Under the pieces are notes generated by a model, which saw nothing but the letters and a program-made list of their open reading frames with translations, ran no database searches and was not told where the DNA came from. The translations under genes were made by a program, and so were the position numbers. Shown piece after piece: positions 7,866-47,092 of a DNA stretch of 64,000 bases (position 1 is the first letter of the stretch; every line of letters starts with the position of its first letter). This DNA is from Phoronis australis. Lineage: Eukaryota; Animalia; Phoronida. The stretch spans positions 1 to 64,000 of the forward strand of contig NMRA01000061.1 in assembly GCA_002633005.1 (NCBI GenBank), in the 5' to 3' direction.

Positions 7866-10438
7866 ATGCCAGCGGTATTTTCAAAGCACATGGGCGAACT
7901 TGACAATGGCAATGTAAACAGATATTACACCGAAGTGGTAAAAATGAGCCGTAAAGACACAAAGCGAAGAGTGGCTAAAGTAATGCCCATAATTCAAGAA
8001 CTCTTGCAGTACATCAACAGTCGCGACTCGCGTTTCGCGAAACAGCCAGAGTGTATCGGAAGCTATTGGCAAGGCTTGAAGGTTGAGAAGGCGGATGAGT
8101 TCGACATAAATGTCGATGTACTGGGGTGTCCGAAATTGGTTTATGGTTCATACGAAAAGAAGTTTATCGGTTTCAACAAGGACGTTGAGGATCCAGCACC
8201 TATAAGGGATGATCTTAAGGTAGTCAGGAAATCGTCGCCTCTTCCGATGCCTCCCCCTGGGCATGCACATGTAGTCCTAGGCGGTTCTTATGGTATGCAG
8301 GACTGGGTTGTGGACGGAGTTTTGATACCTTTTCTCGTGAAAAGAACGTTCCACCATCTTCTTCTTGAGGCTATCAGGATGCTAGGCCTTCGAGGTATTG
8401 TAGCAACAAAGGTGTTTTTAGTGCTGTTTTCGCATGATTACACTGCCTACTGTAGACCAAAAGTTTTTATTGCTTCGTGGATCATATAATTATATTAAGA
8501 GGCGTGATAAAGAATACATCAAGTGCTCAAAATTAACTAGAGTTGCGTGAATTTAATCTTAGACAACATTCAAACACTTGCTGGGATATTTTTCATCAAA
8601 AATGTCTTCGATTTTTTGACGTTAATGGCCGGCATAAACGTAGGCCTATGGAACTTTAGAGTGCTCAAAATTAACTAGAGTCACATGAATTTAATCTTAG
8701 ACAACATTCAAACACTTGCTGGGATATTTTTCATCAAAAATGTCTTCGATTTTTTGACGTTAATGGCCGGCATAAACGTAGGCCTATGGAACTTTAGAGT
8801 TCAGGCATGATGGAAAGGGGATTTGGTCAATTTGGAAGGCACGTTTCGCATTTACATTTGACGTAGATCATTCTAAAAATTTGTAGAGTTAGCGACTTGA
8901 ATCGGCAAACACTGAAAACTTAATGAGCCGTTCAAAAATACTTTTAAATTTATAAGTAAATCGAACAGTAAGAGTGAATTTCAAGCCATTTCTGGAAGAC
9001 GAGAGCATAATGCAAACCCACCCGGTTGTTTTGATAACAACTGTAGCTAAACACATACAAACTCTACATTACTGGAGATATTCAACTCATCTCACTCGAC
9101 AAAACAGTTCTCGATTTTTTTCCAAAAGCTTGTTCTTGATATTCTTCTCTTCCAATGTATTTTGAGGTTTCACCTCTTCTTCTCACATACCCTCCGCTGC
9201 AGATTGACCCTTGCCATTTTGATCATCACTACCGTCCATGTTGGACATTTTGGTTTCTCAGCAAACAACTGTTGAGGTCACCACATTGATTTCAAGACAC
9301 TTTAGAAATTTCGGGAATTGCCAATTCTAAACAAAATCACAAAGAAAACCGAGTTTTCTGTTTTCCCTTACTCTGCCTAAATTTGGTAACTTCAAAAAGT
9401 CAACCCTATACACAAAAAAATTATCAAAATGCGTTTTTCGACCCTAAAGCCGAAGGAGTACGATTAAGAAATGGACTCACTTTTTTGTCGATATGTGAGC
9501 AAGCAGCCAGGTCCAGCCCACTTTACATATATTTTTGATATGTTGTTGCTTTTATATTTAGGAAACGTGAGACAAAGTAAATTGGTCCCCGGTACAGCTC
9601 TTACAGTTCACGTCATGGACGAGAGAGGTGGCATTATTGCAGGCGTCGACTTCACGCCAATTTTGAAAACCAACATGGAATTTCCTTCAGCGTGGCCTAA
9701 AGGTAGCGTCGAGTGGCCCTCTCGTGAGAAGATTAGGGCTGTTTTGGCAAAGGGAACGAATGATGCACCCACAAAGAATTTCTGCTGGTGGACGTCTTAC
9801 TCTCAGGCTGACCATGAGTTATGTCACGACATTGACGCAGATGGTGGGTGTCGGAAGCAATGTTTGAGGATGATGAAAAAGATGCGAAGTGACATCTGGT
9901 GTTCATCCAGTAAACCGGTCATTACATCCTATCACTTGAAGGTTAGTATATTGACACTGATTTTACTTCAAATTTTTGAATGGAGGTGAACATCTCTCTA
10001 ATATTCAATGTTAGCCAATGCAGCCGCCCCTCTGCTATCGTTCGCAGTTACGGGAAGAAGCCTCGCGCAAGGCGAAAAGCAGATATTTAGGCCCATGCGC
10101 TTACGAATGAAATTTTTTGTTTTTAAACAAATATATTTGCAAAAGTGTTTTTTATTCTTACAGTTACTTACTTTGTGTATTTACAGAACACTCTTTGGTG
10201 GGAGTGCCAGGAGCGCCCCAACTCGTGGAGCATAGAAAGAGTTGCCTTCAACTTCATCAGTCTCGTTCGTCGTCTCCATGGTTACGTTAAGAAAAGAAGT
10301 CTCCCACTGTACTTCAATCCAAGCGTGAACTTATTCCTCGAAAAATCAGCTGACGATTTGAAGAGGGTGGAACGAAAGCTAGAAGAGTTTTTACAAAACC
10401 CTTCGTACTTCGTTAGAGCAGCATTGTCTGAGGACTGA
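7866..10438 (+). CDS. cGLR: cGAS-like receptor (Mab21/MB21D nucleotidyltransferase), type A gene 1, ~386 aa, 3 exons
   Basis: Exons 7866-8394, 9562-9941, 10187-10438 with GT/AG ends (phases 1, 0) join into one open frame. Motifs: CIGSYWQGLKVEKADEFDINV (G-S-x-E-h-D NTase), VDFTP (third acid), GCRKQCLRMMKK, ITSYHLKN, LPLYFNPSVNLF. These match cGAS/Mab21 family motifs; no vertebrate zinc thumb. Confidence 0.9.
8522..8800. repeat. 138-bp direct tandem duplication in intron 1 of gene 1
   Basis: AGTGCTCAAAATTAACTAGAG... at 8522 and 8660, near identical. Confidence 0.9.
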
Positions 10439-13841: not shown

Positions 13842-16800
13842 ATGCCAGCGACGTTTTCAAAAGACATGGGAGAACTCGATAACGGCAATGTTAACAAATA
13901 TTACACGGAAGTCGTGAAAATGAGTCTCGAAGACACAAAGCGAAGAGTTGCTAAAGTAATGCCGATAGTTCAAGAAATTTTGAAGTACATCAATGGTCGC
14001 GACCCACGTTTCGCAAAACAGCCTGAGTGTATCGGAAGCTATTGGCAAGGCTTGGAGATTGAGAAGGCTGATGAGTTCGACGTCAATGTCGATGTTCTGG
14101 GGTGCTCAGAATTAGTTTACTGCCCAGACAAAAAGAAGTTTATCGGCTTTAACAAGCAGGTGGATGACCCATCTCCGACTATGAGTGATGATTTGACAAT
14201 AGTCTGTAAATCATCACCTCTCCCGGCGTCTGCTCCTGGTTATGAATACATCTACTGGGAAAGTGACAAAGGCGGTTGGGCGGAGTGGATTGTAGATGGT
14301 CTTCTGGTTCCATTTCTGGTGAAAAGAAGGTTTTTCCACCTGCTTCTCGAGGCCATCAGAACCCTGGAACTTCGAGGTTATTTTTATAGCATTCGTTTTT
14401 TGCTTTTCAAGTTATTTATTTCTGAAATTCCATAATTGATGTTAATTCGAACCCAGCCTTTATTCGAATTTGGGTCCAAAGTAGATTTAGAAAACGAGAC
14501 CATTTGATCAGAATTTTACCATACTAACTTACTTGTGTGCATTTCAATATTTCAAATTATCTCTTATTTCTTTCATTTTCCGCATTTTTCCTGAGAGAAA
14601 TGTTTATTGAGATACTCATCAGCAATTCCAATAGTCACTGCTGTTCTTTTTTGGATAACATGAAAAACGAAACTAAGTAGATGGACAGTTGCACCATTGA
14701 TTAAGAAGGTGTACTGTATAACCAAAGTGCTCGAATGACATGGTGATCGCAAATTTAATCTCTGTGTTGATCAGTCTGGATTCTGGCTGTTGTAAAAGCA
14801 TGATTATTGTGCTCTGATGATTTAAATACAACGGTTAGCTTCATTTTCAATTGACCAATCAAAAACCAGAGATCTACACCACATTCTGTCAAGCCGAAGT
14901 GCTAACAGAGTATGGTTTAGAGACTCAGCTGATATAAAATCACTCCTTGAGTTGAAGGTGTTTCTTGAGATTTGCAAAATCTCATCATTCTCATTTGGTT
15001 AATCACAGGTAGTTCAACTCAGACGATTCACTTACCTAAATTCAAGTTTAACATTTGGACAGAACTTGACTTGTTACGCTTTGTATGAACTATGTCTGTG
15101 TCACGACTGCAAATGAGATCTACCGTGTAGGCCCAGATCAATCAACTGGGCAAGCTCCGTTCCGGCCTGTAGGAATTCCGGTGTCGCAATTTTAAGAAGA
15201 TTTCATAACACTGAATATTCACTGTGAATAATTTCCCTTCATTTAGGAAAGGTGAGGCAAAGTAAACTACTCGCCGGTCCAGCTCTCACTGTTCACGTGA
15301 TGGACGAGAAAGGTGACATTGTTGCTGATGTCGACTTCGCACCAAATATGAAATCTGTCCTCGACTTTCCTGTAAAATGGCCCAAAGGTCACGTCGAATG
15401 GCCCTCGCGCGAAAAGATTCAGGCTGTTTTGGCAAAACGAACGAGCATGGTACCAAGGAAGAATTTTTGTTGGTGGCAATCGTACGCGCAAGCAGACCAG
15501 GAGTTGAGCTGCGGTATTGACGCCGATGGTGGTTGCCGGAAGCTGTGTTTGAGGATGATGAAAAAGATGAGGAGTGACGTCTGGTGTTCAACAAGCACAA
15601 CTCTTACGTCCTACCACTTAAAGGTAAGTCCAATACACCAGATCGTGAAGAGTTGAGAACTTGTCATATGGAAACTTACAGACGTTGCGCAATGGTCTAG
15701 TTCCGCCTTCAGTTCTACTCGATAGGGAGTTTCAGCTGCTTGTTGTCAGTTGCATGAAATCAGACCCAGTAGGAACTCAGCTATGTCCCCTAAATTTTTG
15801 GTGCATTTATAGGCATTGTTTTACTCACTAAAGTTATATTTTCTCCAATATTTCATCTTTGGAATGAGCTCTTATTTCACTTATGACATTTTCGAATAGT
15901 ACGCTTGAAATTTGTGCCCTTATTTCAATGAAAATAAACAATGAATATGTCCTCAGTTTATGGGCGTTGCATGAAAAGGTCCCCGATTACTTTCAATGAA
16001 GATGAACTAAGATTTTTAACGTTTATTCTGTTCAGCACATGTCACTATAATAAATGCTTGAGACCACGGTGAGTGCATAAAATGACCCGCTGTGACACCG
16101 AGCTAACTCGTAGAGCCTGGGCCCGGTCTCCAATCTTTTTACTCGAAATGGAACTCGAAATTAGGTTTGGCATTTTCTACTCTACTTTTGGGCGAACTCA
16201 AGATAAGTGTCCATTATTCTATGCTCGAGTACATAATAACTTACGAAGATAATTTATTGCCCTTAGTTCACAGTTTGTAAACCCAATATTAAAGCAATAA
16301 GTTCGAGTTTGAACTCGAAATTTCGAGTTTTTACTCGAGTTTGTAGCACGAATATAAAGATCTTCAAGGGCAAACTTGAACTAGAAACCCCTATGCATAA
16401 ACTATAATGTATTCGAGCACAGTCTGACAACCAATTATCTTAAGTTCGCACAAAAGGAGCAAAGAAATTGCGATAAATAGTTTTGAGTTCGTTTCGAGTA
16501 CAAATATTAGAGACCGGTCTCAAACAATAACGAACTGTCAGTTCTCCGCTAAGAAATGAAACTTGCTCGGAGCATAAAACTCTAGAACTGTAATGCCAAC
16601 TGTCACGTGTGACTCACGTATTCTACCGGTAGAGTTGCGACTCCGAAATTTCACGGGACTGGCCGTAAAATTCTGGTTTTCTGCTCGCTTGAGTTTTGAT
16701 CGAGTGGTGTAGTTCTCAAATTAAGTGTAATTTCATTGTTTCATTTTCATTATGCCATTTTTGTTCATAATGGAATCATCAAGCGAGACTCTTGAGGTTC

Positions 16801-17628
16801 GGGGGCCTCCTTCAAGAAAACTTTCATAGCTATGGGCGGGCCGAGGGGGAGCTTAACAGGAGGGAGGAGGGGGCGCCTAAGGGCGGCGTGACGTTGGCCA
16901 CCGGAGGTTGGTTGTGTTTGAAACTTTGGTTTGCAATAAGAAGTCAATATTATAACCTTTCAAACGTATAACAACAACCACAACGACAAAAGCAGTAAAT
17001 GGAACAACCTGTATTCACTATAAAATAACTAGCTAAAACAGATCAACGCATATATATGTATACACAGACTGCTCTGTCATGATTAAGATCCTTTAGCATA
17101 GGCGGATCTAGGGGGAAGTCAAGGGGGTCCGGCTTTTCCCCTTGATTTTAGTGGTATCAAATCTAGAATTCTTGACTTGGACTCCCTTTTTTTAAAAAAT
17201 CCTGGAATCCTGTGTAGTTATAAATAATAACAACAACGGTGATTCTGGCAATGAAACATAAAAATCAACTATCATTAGGATTATCATAACGGTTACTACA
17301 ATGAGCAAAAACTTGTAATTTGCTGACATTTTTCATTCTTATAGTTACTTACTTTGTGTGTTTACAGAACACTCTTTGGTGGGAGTGCCAAGAGCGCCCC
17401 CACTCGTGGAGCATAGAAAGAGTCGCCTTCAACTTCATCAGTCTCGTTCGTCGTCTCCATGGCTACGTTAAGGAAAGAAGTCTCCCACTGTACTTCAACC
17501 CAAGCGTTAACTTATTCATCGAAACGCCAACTGAGGATTTGAAGACGGTCGAAATAAAGCTAGAAGAGTTTTTACAAAACCCTTCGTACTTCGTTAGAGC
17601 AGCATTGTCTGAGGAGTACAATGAATGA
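13842..17628 (+). CDS. cGLR: cGAS-like receptor, type A gene 2, ~390 aa, 3 exons
   Basis: Exons 13842-14376, 15247-15623, 17368-17628; canonical splice sites, same phases. Motifs GSYWQGLEIEKADEFD, VDFAP, CRKLCL, SYHLK, LPLYFNPSVNL. Confidence 0.9.
16120..16521. mobile_element. Palindromic MITE in intron 2 of gene 2
   Basis: GGCCCGGTCTCCAATCTTTTTACTCGAAATGGAACTCGAAA mirrors TTTTGAGTTCGTTTCGAGTACAAATATTAGAGACCGGTC, with further internal inverted symmetry. Confidence 0.65.
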
Positions 17629-19804: not shown

Positions 19805-20050
19805 GCCCCCGTTCCAAGAAACTGACTTAAGTTCATTTTTGACTGAAGTCTAAGATTTGTCTTAACTTTCAAACTTTGGAACTTTCACATAAGGCAATTA
19901 AGTTAGTCAACTTAAAGACAAAACTTAAGTCAAACCCAAAATCAGTTTTTTTATATTGACACGGACTTAAAGATAAATTGAATTTTTATCTTAAAATTGA
20001 AACAAATTTGAGATTTGTCTTAGTTAAGTGAGTTTTCTTGAAACGGGCCC
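19805..20050. mobile_element. MITE family 1, copy 2 (same insertion site as copy 1 in the paralogous intergenic unit)
   Basis: Same TIRs and internal sequence as 12771-13005, with homologous flanks. Confidence 0.75.
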
Positions 20051-20811
20051 CTGGCTCTGATATCAAACGTGGTGCTCTGTGCCAGTCATATACGCGACAA
20101 CTGCCAAAATGCCCTCATAACTGAAAAGTGTCACTCCCAATTCCTAGTTGAACGATTCTTACCCGCTGCGTAAGTACAGCAGGACGCAATCGGACTCCGA
20201 CCGAGCCGTGCAACAGTCAAAAGTTTATCCAACCCAGTAACATGGATCTCAGATTTGCACAATGACTTCAACTGGACTTTATAACCCCCTGAAATTTCCA
20301 AAAAAAAACATTCAGTGAAGCTGAGCATCAGTTGATTTGAAAAACAAGTCCATTAATATTAAATATATTACGGACATGCTCAACGTCATATGCTGGGATA
20401 TGTTCCGCGGTTCATCAATTCAGTTCTTGACACAGCAGGCATGCAGTCAGCGAATACACAATGCCCGTAAAGTGGGTTATTTTCTATAGAGTGACGTCAC
20501 ACGTACCCGTACCACATTGACTAATATGAGAATTTCCCCTAGTCATTCCAAATACGATTGAGCACAATGTTCACTAATGAATGCAGAACATATGTTTACA
20601 GCTTTTTACTCTGGATATAGTCGCTACCATAGACCAGCGTATCTATTGGTGTAATGACAAATGTGATATTTTATTAGAACGATACTCATAAACAAGCGTG
20701 TTCACAACACCAAAGTTTTTTATCAGCAGTTATTGATCAAGACATTAACGGTAACAAAATTGTCGTGTTTTCTCCACATTACTTGAGCGGTAAAAACCCG
20801 GCGTTATCGCC

Positions 20812-20909: not shown

Positions 20910-23900
20910 ATGCCAGCGACGTTTTCAAAGGACATGGGAGAACTCGATAACGGCAACGTTAACAGATATTACACAGAAGTGAAAATGAGTCGCGAAGACA
21001 CAAAGCGAAGAGTTGCTGAAGTAATGCCGATAGTTCAAGAAATTTTGAAGTACATCAATGGTCGCGACTCACGTTTCGCAAAACAGCCTGAGTGTATTGG
21101 AAGCTATTGGCAAGGCTTGAAGGTTGAGAAAGCTGATGAGTTCGACATAAACGTCGATGTTCTGGGGTGTCCAAATTTGGTTTACACTTCACTAAAAAAC
21201 AAGTTCATAGGCTTCAACAAACACGTGGATGACCCATCGTCGACTTTAAGCGATGATTTGCAAATAGTAAAGAAATCGTCACCGCTTCCTTCGCCTCCCG
21301 AAGGTTATGAGTATACCTACTTAGACGGATATGGTATGGAGAACTGGATTGTGGACGGAGTCCTGATACCATTTCTCATGAAGAGAACCTTTCACCATCT
21401 TCTTGTTGAGGCTATCAGGGTGCTAGGCCTGCGAGGTATACGCTGTTTAATGATTTATTGTAATATTTTGCACATTTAAGAATGAATTGTACATAAACAC
21501 AATTTTATGAAAATCGGACACTTCATAGTTCTAACTCTCCATCGGGTAAGTGAATAACGCAAGGAAATGCGATCGCAATGGGTATTTTATTCGTTATCGT
21601 CATATGACGGATAGCAGACATATGCAGTTCGTCTGTTCATTCTGACATGTATGTTTCATTTATTTAGGAAAGGTAAGACAAAGCAAACTGGTCGCGGGCC
21701 CTGCTTTAACAGTTCACGTGATGGACGAGAGAAGTCGCATAGTTGCTGATGTCGACTTTGCGCCAATTCTGAAATCTGTTGCCGACTTTCCAGTGAGTTG
21801 GCCTAAAGGTGACGTCGCGTGGCCATCGCACGAGAAGATTCAGGCTGTTCTGGCAAAGCGAACGAGCAGAGTACCAAGCAAGAATTTCTGCTGGTGGAGA
21901 TCATACGCACAAGCGGACCACGAGTTGTGCAGAGACATTGATGCCGATGGTGGTTGTCGGAAGCAATGTCTGAGAATGATGAAAAAGATGAAGAGTGACG
22001 TCTGGTGTTCATCGAGCAAAACTCTTACGTCGTACCACTTAAAGGTAAATCCGAGAGTCTGGTTAAGGTGTGCACGACAATAAGATGTGCACTTACTGCT
22101 TTGTTAGGTCATGTGTTGACGTAACGAATTTCGCTTATATGTGCGCGACTAGCACGGTGAACGCTTTGTTTCCTTGAACCGAAACATGGCATATGCCGGT
22201 GCGATTTGATGAGATTTTGCTGCCGTTGCCATTGCCAGCCCAAAATCACCACCATCAACACCATTCATTCTAGGCTATGTTCAAAATTATTTTTATCCTA
22301 AACCAATTGCACTACAATCACTCGCTGCCGCACACAACTACCCCCACCAAAACCAACACGAGTCCAACACGAAACTCGCAACACCACCCCCANCACTGTT
22401 ATCATCAACAGTTACAGAGTAGTGCCGTCACTAATAACTACTTATTTTTGGGTTTAATGATAATCAATCGATTTAAAAATGAGTTTTATGTCATTTAGCA
22501 CATTTAAATGTTCCAAATTGTCACATTGAAAAAAATCTTAGCGTGCAGCGCTACCTTGCGATAACTTCGATGACGTCAGGGTCACCAACCCTTTACTTCG
22601 ATGGTCATTAACTACCGAAGCCAGTATGAACGGTCCAGTTAACTGCGCTGTTTACGTCGACGCTCCGCTCAGACCGGAGTTAAGTCAATATGAAAGGGCC
22701 TTTAAAGGTTGAGAAAGCTGATGAGTTCGACATCAATGTGGATGTTCTGGGGTGTCCAAATTTGGTTTACACTTCACTAAAAAACAAGTTCATAGGCTTC
22801 AACAAACACGTGGATGACCCATCGCCGACTTTAAGCGATGATTTGCAAATAGTAAGGAAATCGTCACCGCTTCCTTCGTCTCCCGAAGGTTATGGGTATA
22901 CCTACTTAGACGGATATGGTATGGAGAACTGGATTGTGGACGGAGTCCTGATACCATTTCTTATGAAGAGAACCTTTCACCATCTTCTTGTTGAGGCTAT
23001 CAGGGTGCTAGGCCTGCGAGGTATACGCTGTTTAATGATTTATTGTAGTATTTTGCACATTTACAAATGAATTGTACATGTACATAAACACAATTTTATG
23101 AAAATCGGACACTTCATAGTTGAGTTCTAACTCTCCATCGGGTAAGTGAATATCGCAAGGAAATGCGATCGCATTGGGTATTTTATTCGTTATCGTCATA
23201 TGACGGCTAGCAGACATATGCAGTTCGTCTGTTCATTCTGACATCTATGTTTCATTTATTTAGGAAAAGTGAGGCAAAGTAAACTGGTCGCCGGTCCTGC
23301 TTTAACAGTTCACGTGATGGAAGAGAGAGGTCGCATAGTTGCTGATGTCGACTTTGCGCCAATTCTGAAATCTGTTGCTGACTTTCCAGTGAGTTGGCCT
23401 AAACGTGACGTCGCTTGGCCATCGCAGGAAAAGATTCAAGCCGTTCTGGCAAAGCGAACGAGCAGAGTACCAAGCAAAAATTTCTGCTGGTGGATTTCAT
23501 ACGCACAAGCGGACCACGAGTTGTGCAGAGACATTGATGCCGATGGTGGTTGCCGGAAGCAATGTTTGAGGATGATGAAAAAAATGAAGAGTGACGTCTG
23601 GTGTTCATCGAGCAAAACTCTTACGTCGTACCACCTAAAGGTAAATCCAAGAGTCCTGCTGGTTAAGGTGCGCACGACAATAAGACGTGCACTTACTGCT
23701 TTGTTAGGTCATGTGTTGACGTAACGATTTTCGCTTATATGTGCGCGACGAGCACGGGTGAACGCTTTGTTTCCTTGAACCGAACCATGGCATATGCCGG
23801 TGCAATTTGATGAGATTTTGCTGCCGTTGCCATTGCCAGCCCAAAATCACCACCATCAACACCATTCATTTTAGGCTATGTTCAAAATTATTTTTATCCT

Positions 23901-24287
23901 AAACCAATTGCACTACAATCACTCGCTGCCGCACACAACTACCCCCACCAAAACCAACGCGAGTCCAACACGAAACTCGCTCCACCACCCCCATTACCAA
24001 CACCGTTTTTTAATGATAATAGTTACATTTATGTTCCTTTATGCTTACAGAACATCCTTTGGTGGGAGTGTCAGGAGCGCCCCCACTCGTGGACCATGGA
24101 AAGAGTTGCGTTCAATTTCATGAGTCTAGTTCGTCGTCTCCATGGCTGCGTCAAGAAAAGACACTTGCCCTTATATTTCAATCCTGACGTGAACTTACTT
24201 CGGGAAAAATCAGATGGAGACTTGATGAAGGTCCAGGGCACTTTAGAGGAGTTTCTTCAAAACCCATCGTACTTCATTCAAGTATAG
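20910..24287 (+). CDS. cGLR: cGAS-like receptor, type A gene 3, ~379 aa (the assembly has a second partial copy of exons 1-2 between exon 2 and exon 3)
   Basis: Exons 20910-21435, 21668-22044 and 24051-24287 (ends YFIQV-stop); intact catalytic motifs. An N at 22393 separates exon 2 from a redundant copy. Confidence 0.78.
22394..22701. mobile_element. Probable end of a DNA transposon (Harbinger-like terminus) abutting the truncated cGLR copy
   Basis: Non-homologous sequence ending TGAAAGGGCCT immediately followed by TTA. The other end is not in the assembly (N at 22393). Confidence 0.4.
22702..23640 (+). pseudogene. 5'-truncated second copy (alternative haplotype or local duplicate) of gene 3 exons 1-2
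   Basis: Homology to gene 3 starts abruptly at the Leu codon of GL-KVEKADEFD (22702). Exon 1 remnant 22702-23020, exon 2 23264-23640. Introns nearly identical to gene 3. Confidence 0.7.
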
Positions 24288-27249: not shown

Positions 27250-27890
27250 CTGCACTGGACCAATTTGCTGGCCCTCTTTCACAGTCTTCCCGCAGCATCC
27301 TGTAACTTTTCTTTGGGTATCTGGGGTTATTCATCTGTAGAATTTTGGTCCAGTAGATAATTGGTCTGCAAAAGTATTTCATACATAATAAATGCCTGCC
27401 GCATTCTCCTCAGGCCATAACGTTACTTGTTTTCTTTGGGACACCAGCAACCCATTTACTTTCTATGTCTTTCGAATATACTGTGCCGTATAACAATATA
27501 GGACGGTGAACTACCATGCTGTCATACATGTGGGGAGCTACACTTCACTTTGGTTAAACATGCTTTTAACACGTTCATTGCTTTTCTAGCTTGTAAAGCT
27601 GATATTCTACAATTTTCATTCCATTTTAATCTGCAAGTAAATGTCACACCAAGATACTTGTAATAAAATTTCGTTTCTACCAATTTCATATTGTAAAACC
27701 ACTTTTCCTGTGTCGATAGAGTCCCTCCTCGCTTGAAGACAACCGTGAATATTTGTCTTATCAAGATTAACACAAAGACTCCAATCCACACAATAATTGT
27801 GCAATACATTTAATTTTCTCTGAAGTCCAGGCACTGTGTCGGTCATAAGCACTAAATCGTCCGCAAATAGCAACGAACTTAATTCGCAAT
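27250..27890 (-). mobile_element. Decayed non-LTR retrotransposon reverse transcriptase fragment
   Basis: LLFADDLVL...GLQRKLNVLHNYCVDWSLCVNLDKT, frameshift, then VFKRGG...YKYLGV. Part of a ~2 kb insertion absent from the paralogous region near 44070-44090. Confidence 0.8.
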
Positions 27891-28149
27891 CATACTAGAA
27901 CTCTAAAATGACCCGACCTGTTTCTAAGAATTCATTGCTGGATTCTTGGAGCACCATGTCTGCTAGATCGAGCAGGATTCATTGGTCTCTTCATAGCCCA
28001 CTTATACAGTAACCACTTACCGGGTATATAGTAACCACTATAGTGTTTGCTCTTTCACGTGGTATCGTGTTTAATATTGCACACAGTACAATCTACTGAA
28101 TTATTTATTAGCAATTGGTGACGTAGAGCTACGCGTCTTTTGTTAAGGT

Positions 28150-28159: not shown

Positions 28160-28536
28160 CATTTAGGCCTAAGTAAATGGACAATAGGTAAATGAATAAA
28201 ATAATCCAGCGGGACAGACAATATGCCTGGTCTCTTGAAGCAGGTTTATGGATTTCGGGCCTCCAGTTACAATATGTGCTTATTTTCGCCATCATCAATA
28301 TATTTTTGTCCTTCAGGTGTATGACTCAGGTAAAACACTGAATGACAAAGAATCAGGCTGGGAAGCGACGTGGCATGGCCATAAAAGGCCAACGACTTTG
28401 GTTTTTCCTACTATTAGTTTTCCCATGACGAAGAAAAAAATTCTCTCTTCATTTATAAGCTCCTTTTACCCGAGTCGCTCTGAAAATCCTCCACTAACGC
28501 GACTGTCGAAGTAACGCTTGGACACACGTATCCACA

Positions 28537-31500
28537 ATGTCAGCCATCTTTTCCAAAGACATGGGTGAGATCGACAACGGTATTTTTAACAAATTTTACA
28601 ATACCGACGTTGAGAAGACCAGAAAGGAAACCCAATCAAGAGTTGAAAAAGTGAAATCAACTCTAAACAGGGTTCTCCAACAAGTAAACCGACAGGACGA
28701 TCGTTTCGCGAACTGTGTCGATTCCATCCTAACAAAGTGCCCCGATAATTTCGACGTAAAAGTGGAAATTAAAGGTTTCGACTCCGTTTTAAATCATGCC
28801 AAACGCGCAGTATCCACCAATGCTGGTAACACTGGTATCGGAAATGGACCGTTTGTTACCGGCTCAGTACCCACGTTCAAAGAAAAACGCAGTTTTCTGC
28901 CGAACCCACTGCCGGAAGCGCCAATCGGCTACAGGTATTTGGAGCTGGAAGCCGTACCTCATTCATTACACAAATGGGATAAGTGGATTGAGAGATTTAT
29001 CCTGGTGCCAGAGTTCGTGAGGGGAACTTTTATTGACCTGGTCAAAGAAAGCATAAGAGCCAAACGCCTGCAAGGTAAGAACATTGAACTCGGTAGGATG
29101 TTTTTGGAGAATTATGTGCACGCGCAGGAGTTTGTATATTGCGTGCAGTGTAAGTTAACAGAGCCATTGCTTGGAGAGATGTAGAACATAGCTGGCTAGA
29201 GAATATCTGATGTCGTCAGGTGGTTATATTTTAAGCAATATTATAAAAGCGCCTTTTGATTGGGCAGCTGACAAAACAGCTCTCGTAGCACGTTTCATGA
29301 CAGACGCACTGGAACACACACACGCAACGCGTTTCCCTGGCATCATGCCAATAGTAACTGCGACGGCAACTTCTAAATAGATAACTGTATCCTCGCAAAT
29401 AAGCCATGACGCAATTACCATCTTTGTGCAAATTTGTGAACAGCTAAGCGGAAGTACAAGCGCCCGCCAAAAAGAGCAAAACAATGAACAACACTGTGCT
29501 TTTTTCTCCATGTTTTGTAAAAATCAGCCTCTACATGTATTCGTTTAACGTCTTTGATAAAAGGTATAAAAATAATAAATCAATTACTGGACTTACGGTT
29601 ATATAGAGGTGGCTACGTTTTACCAGACTTCTTCCAGATATTTGCACATTTTAGTTGTGTAATTATACCAATGGCCACACAGTTTACATGTATTTGAGAG
29701 GTTAACTTCGGGGTCTGGCTTTTGTGTTCAGATTCTTGCTGTGTTCGCATCACTAGATTTCTTTAAAGCCGTGTTTTCCCATGTTTAACTAGATTGAAGA
29801 CGAAACTCGAATTCGGCTTTTTGTTCTCTTAAAATATGTCTCAAAAATTTCTGACCGTGACAAAATTCCATTCCCGCTACCAATAAAAACATGAAAACTA
29901 TCAACAACTCAAAAAAACGGAGTTTATTGGAGTTGGCCAACAATAAAATTGCGAATACGAAAAACTGTATTGGAATGAAAGAGTTTTTATTTCGTCCGTG
30001 TTTTAAAAATAGCGAATCTGACGATGATTTCTTGAAATTTTTACAATATTCAAAGTGAATAACTCTCACGTAAGCATCTCTAAGTAGACTCGCCACGATC
30101 TGTTTAACAGGTATTTTACGACTGAGTGTTCCATGCGTCTTCCGAACAGATATCATTTGACATGATTGTGTTTCTTTTTGGACTTAGGACTTGTCAGGCA
30201 AAGCAAACTGGCACCAGATGACACCATGAACTTTCGAGTAATGGATGAACGCGGTGACTTTTTGGCGAACGTCACTTTCATTCCGGTCTTAAAATCGGTG
30301 GCTGAGTTCCATCCTCAGGGGGCGCTGATGGATGAAGCAGCATGGCCACCACCACACAAAGTACGAGCCATCGAGCGAACCAGAATAGATCTTGACCTGG
30401 TGCCGGAATGCAAATACTTTTGGAGGGAGAACTACGCACAAGCAGACGACTTGCTCAGCGCTAGCATTGATAGCGATGGAGGATGTCACAAACAATGCTT
30501 AGAAGTCATGGCAAAAATGAAGAACGACTTCTGGTGTCCACCTACAAAAGCAATCATAAGTGACGACCACTTGAAGGTAATCTATTACGGCATAACATAA
30601 TATTGTTAAAACGGACAATTTCCGAGAATAAAGTTTGAGATAGCCTTAATATCTAGTGAATAGCTCATTATTTAGTTGATGAAAAAATGGATATTTCAAA
30701 CCGCTAGCACCATAGAAAATCGAAAATCTTGATTCTGCCATTAACTGTTTGCTGCTTAATTGAAGTCGGTTAAAGTTGCTCAGAACTCACATTTTGTGAC
30801 GCCGAAGAATTGTCCAAAAATATGAATATCGTATGACACAATATATTATTGCATTTAAAAATCCACAACGATCGATAGTTACCTAATGGCTCTTTCGCCG
30901 AATTTTAGATAGACATTGATTACTGAGTGACATCTCAGCTGCAAAAGATGCCGTTCTCAAAAAAATTCCATTTGCCTTGAGTTTACATTTAATTTGTGTT
31001 CCAAAAAGAGCACCGGTTTTGTTAGAGACACGCCGGAGTGTGTACATAGTAGTTGAGTTCGTCTCACGAAAGATTCTGTTAAGACATAATCCATTTTGTT
31101 TTGGTGATTTTATTACAAATCGGCAATTCTTACTATTCGCTGAAATTAAAGCCGGTGACCCTAAATGCTCTGCTATTGTATCGAGAAGCGTTTAGCTGTG
31201 CCAACAAAGCGTTGGATAGCGACCATGGGGCTCGTGACTTCCATTCCGAGTTGGGTCTTATCCCAGAAAACGGCTTATCTCTCTTTAAACCAATATCAAA
31301 AGTAACAGCGACATCGTCGAAATTTGGAATTCTTATGTTGTAAAACTGTAGGCTAATGTTCACCATAAGAAATATCGTGGAAATATATTGTGTTATTCGA
31401 ACAAGTAGAATAGAATAAAATGTTTCTTTTATAAAAAAGGTTTAAATAGCCGTCACTGTCACAACGGCACACTGGGTATTCAAGGGGGCACCCCTGAAAA

Positions 31501-33557
31501 TTTTACTTTAAGGGATCTACGTTTAATTTCAGTTAAAACACACATTTAGCTGCACACTCTTAGGTTGTTGTCCGGCATGGATCTGTGTTCAAATGCCACA
31601 ACTTGTAATCCGTGCAAAGCACTGCACGGACTTTCGATTTTGCCTGCCAAAGGAAAGGATACGACGGAACATGAGCGCGGGGGAGAAGGGGAAGAACGCT
31701 CCTCCTTTCAACTTGGGAAAATATTTCACTGCATGACAATCTACTGAATATTTCATCTCTCAACACCTCATTTCCTTTGGTTGCTGTCTGAGTGTGTTTT
31801 TGTGAAATAGTAGATGTATTAACTCAGGATAAAAACCTACTCAGCACAACAATACAGGGGCCCGTTCCAAGAAAACTAATCTTAAATTTCAGTCAGTTTT
31901 TAGATAAAACTCAAATTTGTCTCAAGTCCGTTTCAACAAAGGGGTCCTAGGTTTGACTTAAGTTTTTGACTTATGTTTTGTCTTATTTTTGACTAATTTT
32001 CCGGAAGTGGAAGTTTCAAAGTTTGGAAGTTGAGACAAATCTTAGACTTAAGTCAAAAATGAACTTACTAAGTCAGTTTCTTGGAACGGGCCTCTGTTCT
32101 GCCACACGGTCCTGATATTGGAAATATAACTAAATAAATGGTATTAGAAATGTACAACATAAATGTCAACAACAAAACTGGATCGGCAGAGTAGGAGATT
32201 ATACAATTAAACATTACACTGAACGGTACCTGGAATTAAATATCTCTAAAGATTCACTCTGCCAGACACCAGAATCGAGGTTCCATAGCATGGTGCCAGC
32301 GTAGATTATTTGCCAAAATTAGTCCCGTTTTTGTGGAAATAGAGATTGCCACTGGCAAAAGACCTACTCAGGTGTCATACCATGGAGACATTTGTGGATA
32401 GCTGAACACCTATGGTAGTCTTTACTCGAGATTTTGTTAAAAGGATACGAAACCTAACTTTGACTTATTAACAGATATTAAAAACGATTTTCCCATCAAG
32501 TTCTCTGAAACAAAATAATGCCATGTAACTCTCGACAACCCTCAGAAGTTTCTTCTAAGTGTGCTAGACGAACAAGTGACGCTTTAGGTGAGTTACTCGA
32601 CAACTATTAAAAGGAAAGTCCACCCGCCAAGAACCGCAAATTCGAATCTTTGACACAAACAGTATGTGTTTTTAATTTATCCTGCCTTTATCACTCGAGT
32701 GAGATGACAATGGTGCATGAGCAGGTGACAGAACGATGGTTGGTTAAAATCACCAGAACAGGGTTTAGTATAATTTTAAACCTGAATAACGACTACAATT
32801 TTAGCACCTGGTCTTACAAGAAGAGAGAAAAATATTTCCGGCTGTTGATTATATGTAGATTTTCGACAAATCATAAAACTAAACATTTTTGAATTTAATA
32901 CCGCACAGCAAAAAGATTCTATTTTGAAGTCCTAAATGCTGAAGAGGAATGTAAACAAAAATGAGAAACACTAGACATTATTTTTAAAAAAAACAAAGTC
33001 AGGGAAACAGCGGCACCGGACAATGTCGGAAAGCACCAGATTTGGGGAGCTTTACAGAAATGTTTTTCAGAGTAGTGTTTTTTTCGGAGCAGTGGATCTT
33101 CGGAGGTAGTGTGTTTCGGAGTAGTAGGCATTCGGAGTAATGGCCCGTTACCGTTACGCGGTGGTGTTGCCCCACAAATGTTGTACATAGTGTTACATAC
33201 AAAATAACTATTATTAGGATTATCATATTGGTTTCTACTATTAAAAAAACTTGTAATTCGGTGGCATTTTTCATTTTTGTGGTTACTCCCTTTATGTGTT
33301 TACAGAACACTCTTTGGTGGGAGTGCCAGGAGCGCCCCAACTTGTGGAGCATAGAAAGAGTCGCCTTCAACTTCATCAGTCTCGTTCGTCGTCTCCATGG
33401 TTACGTTAAGGAAAGAAGCCTCCCGCTGTACTTCAACCCAGGCGTGAACTTATTCCTCGAAAAGTCAACAGAGGATTTGAAGACGGTTGAAGAAAAGTTA
33501 GAAGAGTTTTTACAAAACCCTTCGTACTTCGTTAGAGCAGCATTGTCTGAGGAGTAG
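28537..33557 (+). CDS. Divergent, catalytically degenerate cGLR (type B gene 4); own exon 3 deleted, possibly spliced to orphan type A exon 3
   Basis: Exon 1 28537-29074 (donor G/GTAAGA) and exon 2 30188-30576 (donor AAG/GTAATC) are open and homologous to type A (FSKDMGEIDNG, RQSKL, IDSDGGCHKQCL, HLK). Candidate exon 3 at 33306-33557 is phase-compatible. The exon 2-3 join is inferred. Confidence 0.65.
31858..32093. mobile_element. MITE family 1, copy 3 (inverted)
   Basis: Reverse-orientation copy. Empty site AATACTGTTC at the paralogous position ~48038-48047. Confidence 0.75.
33306..33557 (+). CDS. Orphan type A cGLR terminal exon (NTLWWECQERP...YFVRAALSEE)
   Basis: Intact TTTACAG acceptor and open frame, close to exon 3 of genes 1 and 2. 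No type A exons 1-2 lie upstream of it. Confidence 0.75.
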   Translation, partial: NTLWWECQERPNLWSIERVAFNFISLVRRLHGYVKERSLPLYFNPGVNLFLEKSTEDLKTVEEKLEEFLQNPSYFVRAALSEE

Positions 33558-36527: not shown

Positions 36528-39050
36528 ATGCCAGCGACGCTTTCAAAGGACATGGGGGAACTCGATAACGGTGATGTTAACAGATATTACGCAGAAGTCG
36601 TGAAAATGAGTCGTAAAGACACAAAGCGAAGGGTGGCTGAAGTGATGCCGATAGTTCAAGAAATTTTACAGTACATCAATGGTCGCGACTCACGTTTCGC
36701 AAAACAGCCAGATTGTATCGGGAGCTATTGGCAAGGATTGAAGGTTGAAAAAGCTGATGAGTTTGACATAAATGTCGATGTTCTGGGGTGCCCAAATTTA
36801 GTTCCGACTTTTTCAAAAGAAAAGTTCATAGGCTTCAACAAACACGTCGATGACCCATCGCCGACTTTGAGTGATGACTTGGAGATAGTCCGCAAATTGT
36901 CACCGCTTCCTTCGGCTCCCGAAGGTCATCAGTATATTTACGTAGTTGAAGACGGATGTGGTATGGAGGACTGGACTGTGGGCGGAGTCCTGATACCATT
37001 TCGTATGAAGAGAACCTTTCACCATCTTCTTGTTGAGGCTATCAGGATGCTAGGTCTGCGAGGTATACGCTGTTTAATGGTTTATTGTATTATTTTACAC
37101 ATTTACAAATAAATTGTAATATAAACACAATTTCTGAAAATCGGACACTTTAAGAACTCTCAATTGGGTAAGTGAATGACGCAAGGAAATGCGATCGCAA
37201 TGGTTACTTCGTTGTCAGTCGTTAAAAGACGGCTAACAGACATTCGTAGTTTGTCTATTCATTCTAACATCTATTTGCTTCATTTATTTAGGAAAGGTGA
37301 GGCAAAACAAACTGGTCGCCGGTACTGCTTTAACAGTTCACGTGATGGACGAGAGAGGTCGCATAATTGCTGATGTCGACTTCGCACCAATTCTGAAATC
37401 CGTCGCTGATTTCCCTGTGAGTTGGCCTAAAGATCACGTCGCGTGGCCATCGCACGAAAAGATTCAAGCTGTTCTGGCAAAGCGAACGAGCAGAGTACCA
37501 AGCAAGAATTTCTGCTGGTGGATTTCATACGCACAAGCGGACCACGAGTTGTGCAAAGACATTGATGCCGATGGTGGTTGCCGGAAGCAATGTTTGAGGA
37601 TGATGAAAAAAATGAAGAGTGACGTCTGGTGTTCATCGAGAAAAACTCTTACGTCGTACCACCTAAAGGTAAATCCAAGAGTCCTGCTAGTTAAGGTGTG
37701 CACGGCAATAAGACGTGCACTTACTGCTTTGTTAGGTCATGTGTTGACGTAAAGAATTTCGCTTAATGTGCGCGACGAGCACGGGTGAACGCTTTGTTTC
37801 CTTGAACCGAACCACAGCTTGTGTGCAATTTGATGAGACATTGCTGCCGTTGTTTCACTACCATTACCAGTCCACAATCACCACCATCAACACGTACCAT
37901 TCATTCCATGGCTGCCGCAAAAAAATAAAACAGTAAGAGCGTAGGGAAATGGTGAGTTTATTAATTAACCCCGGTAATTAAAATTATACGGATGAATAAA
38001 GATTTAAATGTGTGCAGTTTTAGTGTTACCAACACCGTTTTTTTAATGATTGTCACGTTTTTCCCCGTGTGTGGATGGGCACAGGCTGTTACAGACCGGT
38101 GCTAATAGCTTTCGGTGCGACGTTGACTGAAGACTGGTTCGAGTTAATCCTTTATTAATCCCGATCGTACGTTCACGAGCCTACTCAAACAAAACGTCCG
38201 ACGTAATGTCTGTTTATGCTCCAGTCAGTGCTGCGAAGCCTTGACTTGTGATGCCCTTCTGAAACACATTCAGCAACTGTTGCACTCGTCGATTCAATAA
38301 CCTGCTGTCTCTATAGCTGGCTCTCTATTGACTATCGCTGTAACTGCTGATTCTCTTCACTGCAACTGAACTGTAATTATCCTGATTAACTTTCTTGAAC
38401 TGACTTGATCTCATCTAACACAAACCCGTGCTTGTGTATTTATACTAGTCTAATGCATTGTTCTGGAACTTTACATCAATTCAAGCCCATTCTAGAAGTT
38501 TCCTGAATCTAACCAATCATTCTACAAACATATACTAGTCTCTAGAATATTCCAGACTGCATTAACCACTGTCATGCTGGAGTCTTCTAGAAAGTTCCAC
38601 ACTATACTGCAGTAAATAAATTACGTCATCACCACTACTAGAAAGTTCCATACTGATCTGTAGTAAACACATTACATCATCATTGTACTTAACTCAGGGG
38701 TCATGCCAATCAAACTGAATAACAAAACAAAACAAAACAATACAACTAATAATACTGTCAGACTATATTCTGACAAAGATAATAGTTACATTTTTGTTCT
38801 TTTATGCTTACAGAACATCCTTTGGTGGGAGTGTCAGGAGCGCCCTCACTCGTGGACCATAGAAAGAGTTGCGTTCAATTTCATCAGCCTAGTTCGTCGT
38901 CTCCATGGCAGCGTCAAGAAAAGACACTTACCCTTATATTTCAATCCTGACGTGAACTTACTTCAGGAAAAATCAGATGGAGAGTTGAAGAAGGTCCAGG
39001 GCAATTTAGAGGAGTTTCTGCAAAATCCTTCGTACTTCATTCAAGTATAG
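36528..39050 (+). CDS. cGLR: cGAS-like receptor, type A gene 5, ~382 aa, 3 exons
   Basis: Exons 36528-37062, 37292-37668, 38814-39050; canonical splice sites; intact GSYWQGLKVEKADEFD, VDFAP and SYHLK. Paralogue of gene 3. Confidence 0.9.
38051..38775 (-). mobile_element. Solo LTR in intron 2 of gene 5
   Basis: TGTCA...TGACA termini, imperfect 5-bp TSD ATGAT/AAGAT, absent at the paralogous site (~24013-24020). TATAAA and AATAAA on the minus strand. Confidence 0.7.
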
Positions 39051-39400: not shown

Positions 39401-40684
39401 AGATTGCTGCCTAACTTATATTGGATCAACCCAAGTGATTGCTTTATTAAGTTAGTGTTGTGCATTGTTAGCGTATAATAAATTTGCTTGTATTCGGATG
39501 TATATTAAAAGCTCTTTCAATAGCCTCTTTAAAACCTTAATTGCTGAATTTTTAATGTTTTCACAAGACAACTGTTTGGAAATCTGTAACCGTCGATATA
39601 CACCTATAAAAGTAGACAAAAATGTCAGGCTGGTTTTGCTGTTCATCGTTTTTGCGCAAAAAGACGGACGTGTCTCTGGTTACAAAACGATTTCTGCGAA
39701 TACCCATATCAACAACGCCCTTTTAACATGAACTAATTAGATCTGAACACACAGACGTTAATTAGGGTGCTAATTTTAACATTTGGAAATGTATGACCCA
39801 TGTTACCTTGACCCACTATTACTCTCACAAAAAGTACTGGTCACCACTATAACAAGGATTATTTTGGCAGCAGTCACTCCTATAAGCAGAATTCATTGAA
39901 CTGAATACATGACAGTGTTGAGAGAGAGGGAGAGGGAGAGGGGGGAGGGAGGGAGTTGGGGGGAAGTGAGGGAGAGGTAACACTTTTGTTTGCACTAAGA
40001 CATAACACATTAAAGGCAAAGTCAACCTTTTTTCTTGTCACTTTTCGCAAAAATAAGGTTCGTTGATTATCCCAGACACATTTTTCACTTAATTACAGCT
40101 TTTCGTAATTTTATTAATTTCTCGTCTTCTACTCCAGAAGTGACGTTTTGGGAGGCAAGGGTTTCGCGCCAATTTCTTTTCACTATAGTCTGACTGTGAG
40201 AGCTGTCGAGTCAGTCATTGTTCTACCTCGGTTGTGATAAATTCGGTCGTCGTTTGCTTTTGTTTACAAGTCAGTCAACGTGCCACGCTGTTGCAACGTG
40301 CCGGGATGTACTCATTATCGTCTCACACGCGCTTTGGGTACCTTGCGTCACTTTCCGAAGGATGACACATTTCGCCGTACTTCGCTAGCTCGTTCATGTG
40401 AAGAACGCAGCACTACCCGCGTCCAGGCAACGTACAAAGCAGTGGAGGGTTACCGAGTGTGTGGCAAGCATTTTCTGCCGTCATGTTAAGACAGAGATTT
40501 GTACGCTGAATTAATGAAGGTCGCTGCGAAACAACGCCTGAAGAAGGGTACCATACCGTCGCTGTTGATTACCGGCAGTGCCCCGTCGCCAACCCCGAGA
40601 AATGCGTTTTTGAAGCGGGAAGCCTCGCGATCGAACTGTGGCCACAGTGACTGGCACTTCAACTGTCACCCGTGCCTCCGAACG

Positions 40685-44718: not shown

Positions 44719-47092
44719 ATGCCAGGGATCTTTTCCAAAGACATGGGTGAGATCGACAACGGTATTTTCAACAAACTCTACAATACCGATGTTAGGACGA
44801 CCAAACAGGAAACCCAATCAAAAATTGAAGAAGTTAAGTCAACCTTAAACAGGGTCCTCCAGCACGTAAATCGTATCGATGAACGTTTTGGGAACTGTGT
44901 CGATTCCGTCGCAGTGAAGAATCCCGGTACTTTCGATATAAAAGTTGAAATCAAAGACTTCGACGTGGTTTTGAATCATGCCAAACGCAGTGTGCCGCTT
45001 GGCGTTGGTCCTACCGGCTATTTGGGCGCAGGACAGGCCAGTGCAGCAACACAGCTGGCACAGGGTACAAGAGTGCCCATCGTTCAATACCCGCGTTTGC
45101 AGAGAAAGGCACCTTCTTGCCAAATCCATTACAGGAAGCACCAACCGGATATAGATGCTTGAAATTGAATGAAGTGCCAGTTTCATTACACAAATGGAAT
45201 AAGTGGCTTGAGGGAGGTATCCTGGTGCCAGAGTTCGTGAGGAGAACTTTTGTCCACCTGGTCAACGAAGCCATAAGAGCCCAAGGTCTGCAAGGTAAGA
45301 AAGATGAAATTGTTTTTATGAGAATTATCTCAGTGTGCATCCGTACGAGTTTGTACACTACGTCTAGTGAAGAGGAATCGGGCTGCCGGATTATAGAGCA
45401 GAGCTGGTCAGAGAGAAATTTGTGGCGGGCAGAATTGCCTTTCGATGGGGTATGTGCTGACAAATTTCATGAGAGCCGCAGAGGGAAACATGGTATCGTC
45501 TTGCATCAAAGGGGAATTCCCCGCTGTTTAGGTGTAAACGTCGAATTCTTATCCGAAGCGATTATCCGAAGCGATTTAATTGTCACTAGTGATTTCATTA
45601 CATTTGATTGTATTTCTTTTTGAACTTAGAGCTGATCAGGCAAAGCGAACTGGCACCAGAAGACACCATGAACTTTCAAGTAATGGATGAACGCGATGAA
45701 TTTCTGGCGAACGTCACTTTCATTCCGGTCTTAAAATCAGTAGCCGAATTCCATCCTCAGGGGGCGCTGATGGATGGAGCAGCATGGCCACCACCAGACA
45801 AAGTACAAGCCATCGAGCGAACCAGAATAGATCTTGACCTGTCGCCAGAATGCAAATACTTTTGGAGGGAGAACTACGCACAAGCAGACGACTTGCTCAG
45901 CGCTAGCATTGATACCGATGGAGGATGTCGCAAACAATGCTTAGAAGTCATGGCAAAAATGAAGAACGACTTCTGGTGTCCATCTACAAAACCAATCATA
46001 AGTGACGACCACTTGAAGGTAATCTATTACGGCATAACATACCGGTAGTATTGTGAAAACGGACAATTTCCGCGAATAAATTTTGAGATAGCCTAAATAT
46101 CTAGTTAATAGTTAATAATGTACTTGATAAAAATGGATATTCCAAACCGCTAGCACCATATAAAATCGAAAATCTTGATTCTGCCATTAACTGTTCGCTG
46201 CGCAGTTGAAATTGGTTAAAGTTGCACACAACTCGCATTTTGTGACACCGAAGAATTGTCCAAAAATATGAATATCATGAATATTGCATTCAAAAATCCA
46301 CAACTATCGATAGTTACCTAATGGCTCGTTCGCCGAGTTTTAGATGGACATCGTTGGTTACTGAGTGACATCTCAGCTGCAAAAGATGCCGTGCTAAAAA
46401 AATTCCATTTGCTCTGAGTTTACATTTGCTTTCCAAAAAGAGCACCGGTTTTTTTTAGAGACACGCCGGAGTGTGTACATAGTTGAGTTCGTCTCACGAA
46501 AGATCCTGTTAAGAGATAAACCGTTTTGTTTTGGTGATTTTATTACAAATCGGCAATCTTTTACTTTTGTCTGCCAACTATTCGCTGAAATTAAAGCCGG
46601 TGACCCTAAATGTTCTGCTATTGTACCGAGAAGCGTTTAGCTGTGTCAACAAAGCGTTAGATTGCGACCGCGGGGTTCCTGCCTTCCATTCCGAGTTGGG
46701 TCTGATCCCAGAAAACGGCTTTTCTCACTTTAAACCCTTATCAAATGTAGGCATCGTGAAAATTTGGAATTCTTATGTCGTGGAAATTGTAGGCTAATGT
46801 TCACCATAAGAAATATTCTTGAAATGTGTTTTTTTAATGTTTTCTGTTGTAGAATGTTCTGTGGTGGGAATGCCAAGCACATCCTGAGCTGTGGGACGTG
46901 GAGCGAGCACCATATTACTTCATCCGTCTCGTGCGGCGTTTTCATAGTTACGTGAAGGACGGAAATTTGCCAGGGTTTTTCAATTCGTCTGTGAACCTGT
47001 TATCTGAAACTCCGCCGCATGGTCTTGAAGCCCTGCAAGAAAAAATAGATGAATTTCAGAGAAATCCCGCATATTTCATGAAAGCCTTCTAA
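44719..47092 (+). pseudogene. Catalytically degenerate cGLR (type B gene 6) with a frameshift in exon 1 as assembled
   Basis: Exons 44719-45294, 45630-46018, 46853-47092 (NVLWWECQAHPELWDVERAPYY...LPGFFNSSVNLL...). Homology to gene 4 switches frame between about 45010 and 45080. Confidence 0.7.

Follow-up and report, generated by a model that had tools for sequence, protein, structure and literature searches.

A predicted Mab21-family pseudo-enzyme beside intact cGLR genes in a tandem array of Phoronis australis

Introduction

Mab21-family proteins that do not act as enzymes are already known. They include MiD51 (MIEF1), MAB21L1 and the shrimp Mab21 proteins. MiD51 is a non-catalytic Mab21 fold that works by protein contact, through recruitment of Drp1 (PMC3926961). 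The shrimp proteins LvMab21-1, LvMab21-2 and LvMab21-3 are described as lacking nucleotidyltransferase residues, being antiviral, and binding and activating IKKepsilon (PMC12928593). In catalytically active cGLRs, mutation of any one residue of the catalytic triad is reported to abolish activity (10.1101/2023.02.22.529553; PMC8410604), and the triphosphate and base are held by K414, Y436 and the G/S loop (PMC4897736). Acidic cGLRs have been proposed to answer positively charged ligands, a proposal that concerns the groove and not the pocket (10.1101/2023.02.22.529553). Because surveys of cGLRs keep intact active sites only, non-catalytic members of invertebrate arrays are largely unexamined.

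Here we describe two members of this kind in the 64,000-nucleotide stretch of Phoronis australis DNA that was analysed (the window), and compare them with their intact neighbors.

Results

The plus strand of the window carries a tandem array of three-exon Mab21-family genes, four of type A and two of type B (Table 1). The gene models use GT-AG introns with the same phases, and intron positions and phases are common to the A and B genes. The open type A genes (1, 2, 3 and 5) encode proteins of 379-390 aa. All four full type A genes contain CIGSYWQGL[KE][VI]EKADEFD, VDF and TSYHLK, and all four have the catalytic triad of the cGLR active-site definition, [DE]h[DE] X50-90 [DE]. Type A exon 1 matches Sp-cGLR1 (PDB 8GJY; E=1.8e-4) with the GS..EFD motif aligned, and mouse cGAS also aligns across this motif. 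Human cGAS numbering was taken from PMC4897736 and PMC4117786, and the rest of the protein was bridged to cGAS via a full-length relative from Pecten maximus (P0001). At the C-terminal end, the Mab-21_C model (PF20266, cut-off 24.1) gives 41.4 bits for exon 3 of gene 6 and 40.6 bits for an orphan exon 3 downstream of gene 4.

Two features of the array are recorded here in their own right. The position equivalent to R376, encoded in exon 2 (for example, 37292-37668 in type A), is Trp in all four type A proteins and Arg in B, and is Trp in none of 25 full-length relatives; the type A Trp may result in an unusual nucleotide product. Single Ns at 22393, 43830, 51106 and 58035 join near-duplicate tandem blocks (for example, 21117-22392 and 22702-23993), which are ~95% identical in three cases and 84% identical for the short one at 43830. 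These joins likely represent two haplotypes joined by assembly, and the doubled part of gene 3 is likewise a likely assembly duplication. Given the N-joined blocks, a 'gene 3b' is probably no separate gene.

Table 1. Positions of the array genes, type B sites and other elements in the window.
Feature	Position	Strand	Remarks
Gene 1, type A cGLR	7866..10438	+	3 exons; intact catalytic motifs
Gene 2, type A cGLR	13842..17628	+	Intact catalytic motifs
Gene 3, type A cGLR	20910..24287	+	Partly present twice, either side of the single N at 22393
Reverse-transcriptase fragment	27522-27894	-	Directly upstream of gene 4; broken; RVT_1 E=5.6e-5, below cut-off; LINE-like remnant
Gene 4 (type B) exon 1	28537..29074	+	179 codons + 1 nt; spine helix, shortened activation loop
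Gene 4 N71	28747-28749		E225 equivalent
Gene 4 D73	28753-28755		Retained D227 equivalent
Gene 4 intron 1	29075..30187	+	GT..AG, phase 1; holds repeats; 4 spliced X3 reads
Gene 4 exon 2	30188..30576	+	
Acidic DDT loop, gene 4 exon 2	~30214-30222		
Gene 4 T209	30274		D319 equivalent
Gene 4 N261	30430		S378 equivalent
Gene 4 E285	30502		K411 equivalent
Gene 4 A288	30511		K414 equivalent
Gene 4 D305/D306	30562-30567		S435/Y436 equivalents
Deletion breakpoint, gene 4	31385..31395		~720 bp with type B exon 3 removed; from alignment and self-BLAST
MITE-like element	31855-32096		Downstream of gene 4; ~240 bp, terminal inverted repeats; also at 12768-13008 and 19808-20053
Junction	33185..33200		Gene-6-like B-block DNA to gene-2-like A-type intron 2
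Orphan type A exon 3 (Mab-21_C)	33306..33557	+	In frame with gene 4 exon 2
Gene 5, type A cGLR	36528..39050	+	RNA shows splicing of both introns
Repeat region	39770-42390		Between genes 5 and 6; strongly transcribed on both strands; likely a transposon
Inverted pair in repeat region	40010-40326 / 41916-42231		
Gene 6 (type B) exon 1	44719..45294	+	576 nt (gene 4, 538 nt)
Gene 6 exon 2	45630..46018	+	Identical to gene 4 exon 2 at 365/389 nt
Gene 6 exon 3, type B terminal exon	46853..47092	+	Mab-21_C, E=1.7e-10
Open frame, 291 aa	51948-52823	+	Internal ~300-nt repeat; no Pfam match
Open frame, 337 aa, Ser-rich	61896-62909	-	No Pfam match; probably a large exon of a neighboring gene

The initial annotation of this DNA had proposed that the type B gene between 28537 and 30576, a span that indeed runs from the ATG of gene 4 to the last base of exon 2, encodes a pseudo-enzyme altered at the equivalents of G212/S213, E225, D319 and Y436. 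The motifs on which this proposal relied are present as described (CVDSILTKCPDNFD in gene 4 and CVDSVAVKNPGTFD in gene 6, with VTF and SDDHLK in both), and alignment with relatives confirms that the losses at E225, D319 and Y436 are common to both B genes. Loss of G212/S213 stands only in part. The loop carries a net deletion of seven residues, but its register is ambiguous, such that S213 is kept in one alignment and both G and S are deleted in a second. Neither B copy has GS or GG in its activation loop, and the triad reads N/T-F-D plus T instead of E-F-D plus D; both features depart from the cGLR criteria, the former from G[S/G].

The damage is more extensive than first reported, as the equivalents of K414, S378, K411 and S435 are gone as well. 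In both B copies, E225 is replaced by N or T, D319 by T, S378 by N, K411 by E, K414 by A, and S435 and Y436 by D, and a G-P-A-x-T loop has become D/E-D-T-M-N. Comparison with 25 full-length relatives indicates that both copies retain D227, H437, K407, K439 and an acidic residue at E383, the D227 equivalent being the one triad acid of three that survives. Among these relatives (31 sequences of at least 300 aa out of 131, minus P0054, P0072, P0081, P0097, P0112 and P0114, which were dropped by hand as partial or doubtful), all 25 have E or D at the E225 position, 24 have D at D319, and 24 have K at K414. Counting only columns that are conserved among the relatives as well as across the four A genes, B has lost seven of the nine pocket positions defined from the literature and 11 of the 55 remaining ones (Fisher p=0.001; with S213 counted as kept, 0.008; at a stricter threshold, 0.005 and 0.04). 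This disparity indicates that the damage is aimed at the pocket and is not evenly spread.

Several replacements reverse or add charge. Acidic residues occur in both B copies at the S305/P306 loop and at the K411, S435 and Y436 positions, where S305/P306, like Y214, are what we take to be human cGAS residue numbers. The part encoded by exon 2 contains 21-23 D/E in B versus 13 in A. Calculated pI values are 5.6-6.3 for B and 8.7-9.2 for three of the four A proteins, with gene 2 at 6.4. The spine helix of gene 4 has 10 K/R in 43 residues, and that of A has 9-10. Since exon 2 carries every one of these acidic residues and its dS is only 0.08, the fact that both copies share them says little about selection. 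With two triad acids and the donor-site Tyr and Lys gone, nucleotide synthesis by B is very unlikely. The pocket losses in both genes, the loop deletion and the missing triad acids together support the assignment as a pseudo-enzyme, and we infer with high confidence that B is without catalysis.

Gene 4 and gene 6 differ in the state of their exons. The ~720 bp missing from gene 4 matches gene 6 region ~46830-47553. Downstream of gene 4 the DNA is gene-6-like up to 33189, and then continues as a gene-2-like intron 2 and the orphan exon 3. In the gene model, exons 1 and 2 of gene 4 plus this orphan exon form an in-frame chimera of 392 aa. The orphan is likely the terminal exon of gene 4, and there is a good chance that the gene yields a B/A chimeric protein through it; the RNA joints listed include none between exons 2 and 3 of gene 4. 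The MITE-like element downstream of gene 4 is absent from the matching place after gene 6.

Exon 1 of gene 6 has a net gain of 38 nt relative to gene 4, in the loop at ~45020-45085, and is frameshifted as assembled. The frames on both sides of the shift are open, and thus the shift would be accounted for by a single small, recent indel or by a mistake in the assembly. Removal of a 38-nt GT..AG stretch as a rescuing mini-intron is unlikely, because this stretch is very short and its removal would cut residues that, by eye, are homologous to gene 4. We also rejected the idea that genes 4 and 6 are alleles doubled by assembly, since exon 1 has a dS of 0.47 and the flanks differ by 8-18%, compared to the ~95% identity of N-joined duplicates.

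In midpoint-rooted trees, A and B group as a single clade (100/100) whether or not exon 3 of gene 4 is included. When this exon is left out, the stem length is 1.14 changes per column for B and 0.14 for A. Exons 1-2 of B are 39-41% identical to type A. We also surveyed 131 public relatives, comprising 130 HMMER matches among representatives plus P0001. The motif G[SG]..[DE]h[DE] is present in 113 of them; the other 18 are in many cases fragments, MAB21L-like or poor matches, and about five have degenerate motifs. Together, the tree and the motif survey point to descent of B from an intact ancestor and to motif decay that recurs in the subfamily. Judged from sequence, type B is derived from the type A cGLR genes that share its array. 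Among the relatives, P0031, P0049, P0074, P0075 and P0119 have degenerate motifs and P0116 lacks D319, K414 and Y436. Some of these may be pseudogenes, and as a group they suggest repeated, independent loss of catalysis in the subfamily.

No B-like protein was present among the 131 public relatives. Word-index searches of longer proteins with either of the first two B exons gave no match, and an exon-1 profile search matched one protein; both outcomes are weak negatives. A metagenome locus scan revealed no relative, the ESM Atlas gave no usable match for either exon, and a PDB sequence search with B exon 1 alone returned chance matches only. Pfam Mab-21 does not match exons 1 and 2 of B alone, and PF03281 likewise misses exons 1-2 of gene 5.

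It had also been claimed that the B protein stayed under purifying selection after losing catalysis, based on seven kinds of synonymous codon pairs between genes 4 and 6. All seven are found, at codons 17, 24, 39, 42, 48, 51 and 52. Over the first 90 codons, 16 codons differ purely synonymously and 23 change the amino acid. A codon branch model for exon 1 yields an omega of 0.40 with a dS of 0.47, a value that differs from 1 (p=1.4e-4) and is compared with type A's 0.26 at p=0.13. Counting over 155 codons, which leaves out 24 gene 4 loop codons around the gene 6 frameshift, gives dN/dS values of 0.30-0.43 according to the kappa chosen (bootstrap interval 0.23-0.62). Under neutral simulation both exon-1 frames remained free of stops in only 6-19 of 5000 runs, and the observed exon-1 differences are rarer at conserved columns (10/52 versus 33/92, p=0.04). 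For exon 2, dS is 0.077 and omega is 0.69, a ratio above type A's 0.21 (p=0.015) and compatible with neutrality (p=0.44 versus 1), although power is low, with seven synonymous and 15 non-synonymous differences and a CI of 0.25-2.2. Purifying selection is thus shown for exon 1 only.

By parsimony, the loop deletion common to both exon-1 lineages places their divergence after the deletion. In non-coding DNA, gene 4 and gene 6 are 0.15-0.18 apart in the upstream part. The distance is 0.44 where intron 1 begins and 0.34 across its final 48 bases, and it is 0.08-0.10 for intron 2 and the DNA that follows. These uneven distances indicate that the two genes are mosaics of old exon-1 lineages and a recently shared exon 2. 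The split between the B exon-1 lineages is about as deep as the splits among A genes (dS 0.5-0.76 at kappa 2, without the close pair of genes 3 and 5). Constraint following the predicted loss of catalysis is therefore evident for the older, exon-1 divergence only, and the B protein was very probably functional at least until these lineages had split.

Expression was assessed in three raw-read RNA runs (X1-X3, ~18-19% of each being read) and in a set of contigs (X4), all picked by species label. Within 28380-30760, 31 of 195 X3 reads match at 99% identity or higher. Sense depth in X3 is about 2-8 over exon 1 and about 5-10 over exon 2, with none in the first bins of intron 2, and four reads from three starts span the GT-AG joint 29074/30188. 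X2 (3/231 reads) and X1 (2/240) have little or no gene 4 sense signal, and X4 contigs give no signal on gene 4 exons. Gene 4 is spliced and transcribed in one of the three RNA samples. Instead of a dN/dS near 1 with no expression, the outcome named in the initial annotation as speaking against its reading, we find a transcribed gene 4 with an exon 1 ratio of 0.40.

The exonic differences among those listed for X3 are K170N, E229G and S275T, all non-synonymous, with two giving the gene 6 residue; none of the differences listed falls at a catalytic-site codon. A base specific to the orphan exon, 33470A, is carried by 12 of 18 X3 reads, 2 of 14 in X1 and 2 of 10 in X2, and so tracks gene 4 depth, which is indirect evidence for the use of this exon by gene 4. 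Gene 6 exons in X3 reach a bin depth of only about 0.5-1. Splicing of gene 5 is seen in each of the three samples, with higher depth in X1 and X2 than in X3. As a separate observation over three samples only, X3 combines gene 4 reads with low gene 5 depth and X1 and X2 show the reverse, a pattern that could be due to haplotype or regulation.

Structures were predicted for single exons, using the same 77 alignment rows for A and B exon 1. The B exon-1 model has a pLDDT of 78.6 and the A model 89.7. In the B model the spine helix is retained, and strands 57-65 and 72-78 make up a short hairpin in place of the 15-residue loop of A; residues 91-120 are of low confidence. Foldseek ranked MAB21L1 and cGAS first with E above 0.2, and gave no match at E of 0.001 or below. 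On realignment, MAB21L1 is best (Z 8.6, rmsd 4.8, 134 aligned), followed by cGAS and Sp-cGLR1. The superposition on cGAS that had been proposed is possible over cGAS residues 161-297, with a model that covers exon 1 only. Because the alignment rows are mostly intact relatives, the fold model is supportive rather than independent. Together with the pocket counts, it agrees with the MiD51-like pattern of a pseudo-nucleotidyltransferase in which the fold is kept and the catalytic acids are lost.

Discussion

We propose that duplication of a type A cGLR gene gave rise to the type B paralog, which has lost most nucleotide-pocket residues while keeping conserved fold residues. Its product is likely no enzyme but a lineage-specific pseudo-cGLR that works next to its intact neighbors by binding proteins, as a regulator or an adaptor. 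To this reading of B, a duplicated and pocket-stripped protein that is predicted to make no cyclic dinucleotide, we assign about an even chance. A protein-contact role is preferred because a folded surface is what stays under selection, and by analogy with MiD51 and shrimp Mab21 such contact is the likely function. Splicing and transcription of gene 4 make a non-enzymatic regulator likelier than a dead gene. We rank protein contact first, followed by present decay, competition for nucleic acid, a new acidic site and a sink.

Both copies might instead be decaying now, B having once been functional and gene 4 transcription being residual. The frameshift in gene 6, the exon-3 deletion in gene 4, an exon 2 omega indistinguishable from 1, expression in one of three samples and the non-synonymous nature of all three listed exonic variants would each fit such decay. 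We nonetheless consider it unlikely, as the frame of gene 4 is open, its splice sites are canonical and another sample shows it spliced, the exon 2 test is low in power, and the gene 6 shift fits a single recent indel or an error in an assembly that has single-N joins. The dominant-negative role suggested in the initial annotation, in which B would bind type A's double-stranded nucleic acid without signalling and damp A by competition or mixed assembly, is rather doubtful. It is consistent with the basic residues kept in the spine helix, with the retained K407 equivalent and with the location of A and B in one array, but not readily with the drop in pI or the reversed charge at K411, and the putative binding of nucleic acid by B is uncertain.

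A further reading, in which the acidic pocket has been remade into a novel catalytic or ligand-binding site that would hold metals or a cationic ligand and make B an altered enzyme or a sensor of something other than nucleic acid, strikes us as improbable. The equivalents of K414, Y436 and the G/S loop, reported to secure triphosphate and base (PMC4897736), are gone, even though both copies combine the retained D227 with new Asp/Glu, the exon-2 part is enriched in D/E relative to A, and acidic cGLRs have been proposed, via their groove, for positively charged ligands (10.1101/2023.02.22.529553). A ligand sink, which would hold cyclic dinucleotide or NTP without turning it over in the manner of MiD51 with ADP and GDP, was among the roles first suggested and is now hardly credible. 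MiD51 is reported to bind nucleotides with one triad acid (PMC3926961), and B has Arg at the R376 position and keeps D227, K439 and the acid at E383. The base-stacking Tyr and the phosphate-binding Lys are lost, however, and acidic residues are gained at pocket-associated positions; the changes of Y436 to Asp, K414 to Ala, S378 to Asn and S435 to Asp would be expected to repel a polyanion. These losses and the acidic exon-2 part disfavor the sink.

A more speculative possibility, which we hold to be doubtful as well, is that gene 4 encodes an exon-shuffled pseudo-receptor, present or expressed in some individuals only, that combines a cGLR N-lobe and charge-reversed pocket with the C-terminal helical bundle of an active paralog. 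Such a protein might serve as a decoy or guard for pathogen proteins aimed at cGLRs, or as a cationic-ligand sensor that signals without a second messenger. The initial annotation likewise named putative roles as a scaffold or as a decoy for viral antagonists. If so, cGLR arrays would hold sensor/decoy pairs that motif-filtered surveys discard.

Returning to the preferred reading of B as a protein-binding regulator or adaptor, the locus allows the birth of a non-catalytic member to be traced, given adjoining intact parents, selective pocket loss, later selection and one expressed copy. The A/B pair provides a ready test for built-in regulators or decoys in cGLR arrays. In the literature covered by our search, that is, main texts outside subscription journals, we found no account of a pseudo-cGLR whose birth is traced inside an intact cGLR array, with acidic substitutions in the pocket and a copy that is likely exon-shuffled.

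The closest named proteins are annotated 'protein mab-21-like 3' (P0001 from Pecten maximus, P0004 from Liolophura sinensis and P0116 from Glandiceps talaboti), an automatic label that is no proof of orthology with vertebrate MAB21L3. They have the same domain pair as the array genes and are 28-41% identical to type A, whereas B is only 24-29% identical to them. P0001 and P0004 keep all catalytic motifs, unlike B, and the losses in P0116 are apparently independent of those in B.

Type B shares Mab21 ancestry with cGLRs such as Sp-cGLR1 (PDB 8GJY) and human cGAS, and its exon 3 is a Mab-21_C domain. The cGLR survey defines these receptors by the activation-loop motif plus the triad (10.1101/2023.02.22.529553); B lacks the motif and two of the three acids, and so would have been filtered out. 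Type B falls outside the cGLR active-site definition and, on present sequence evidence, is best filed as a Mab21-family pseudo-enzyme.

MAB21L1, the best structural match of the B exon-1 model, has an incomplete triad and an inactive conformation (PMC4897736). It is extremely conserved and keeps E73, E75, Y272, K255, K275 and E238. B differs from it in its fast evolution and in having no equivalent of Y436 or K414 left. MiD51, like B, has one triad aspartate left, and is reported to have a transmembrane anchor and still to bind nucleotides, namely ADP and GDP (PMC3926961). Unlike MiD51, B arose by local duplication within an immune-type array and carries acidic substitutions at base- and phosphate-binding positions. 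The shrimp LvMab21 proteins were set beside B by description; because B groups with its own A neighbors, we infer that the two arose independently.
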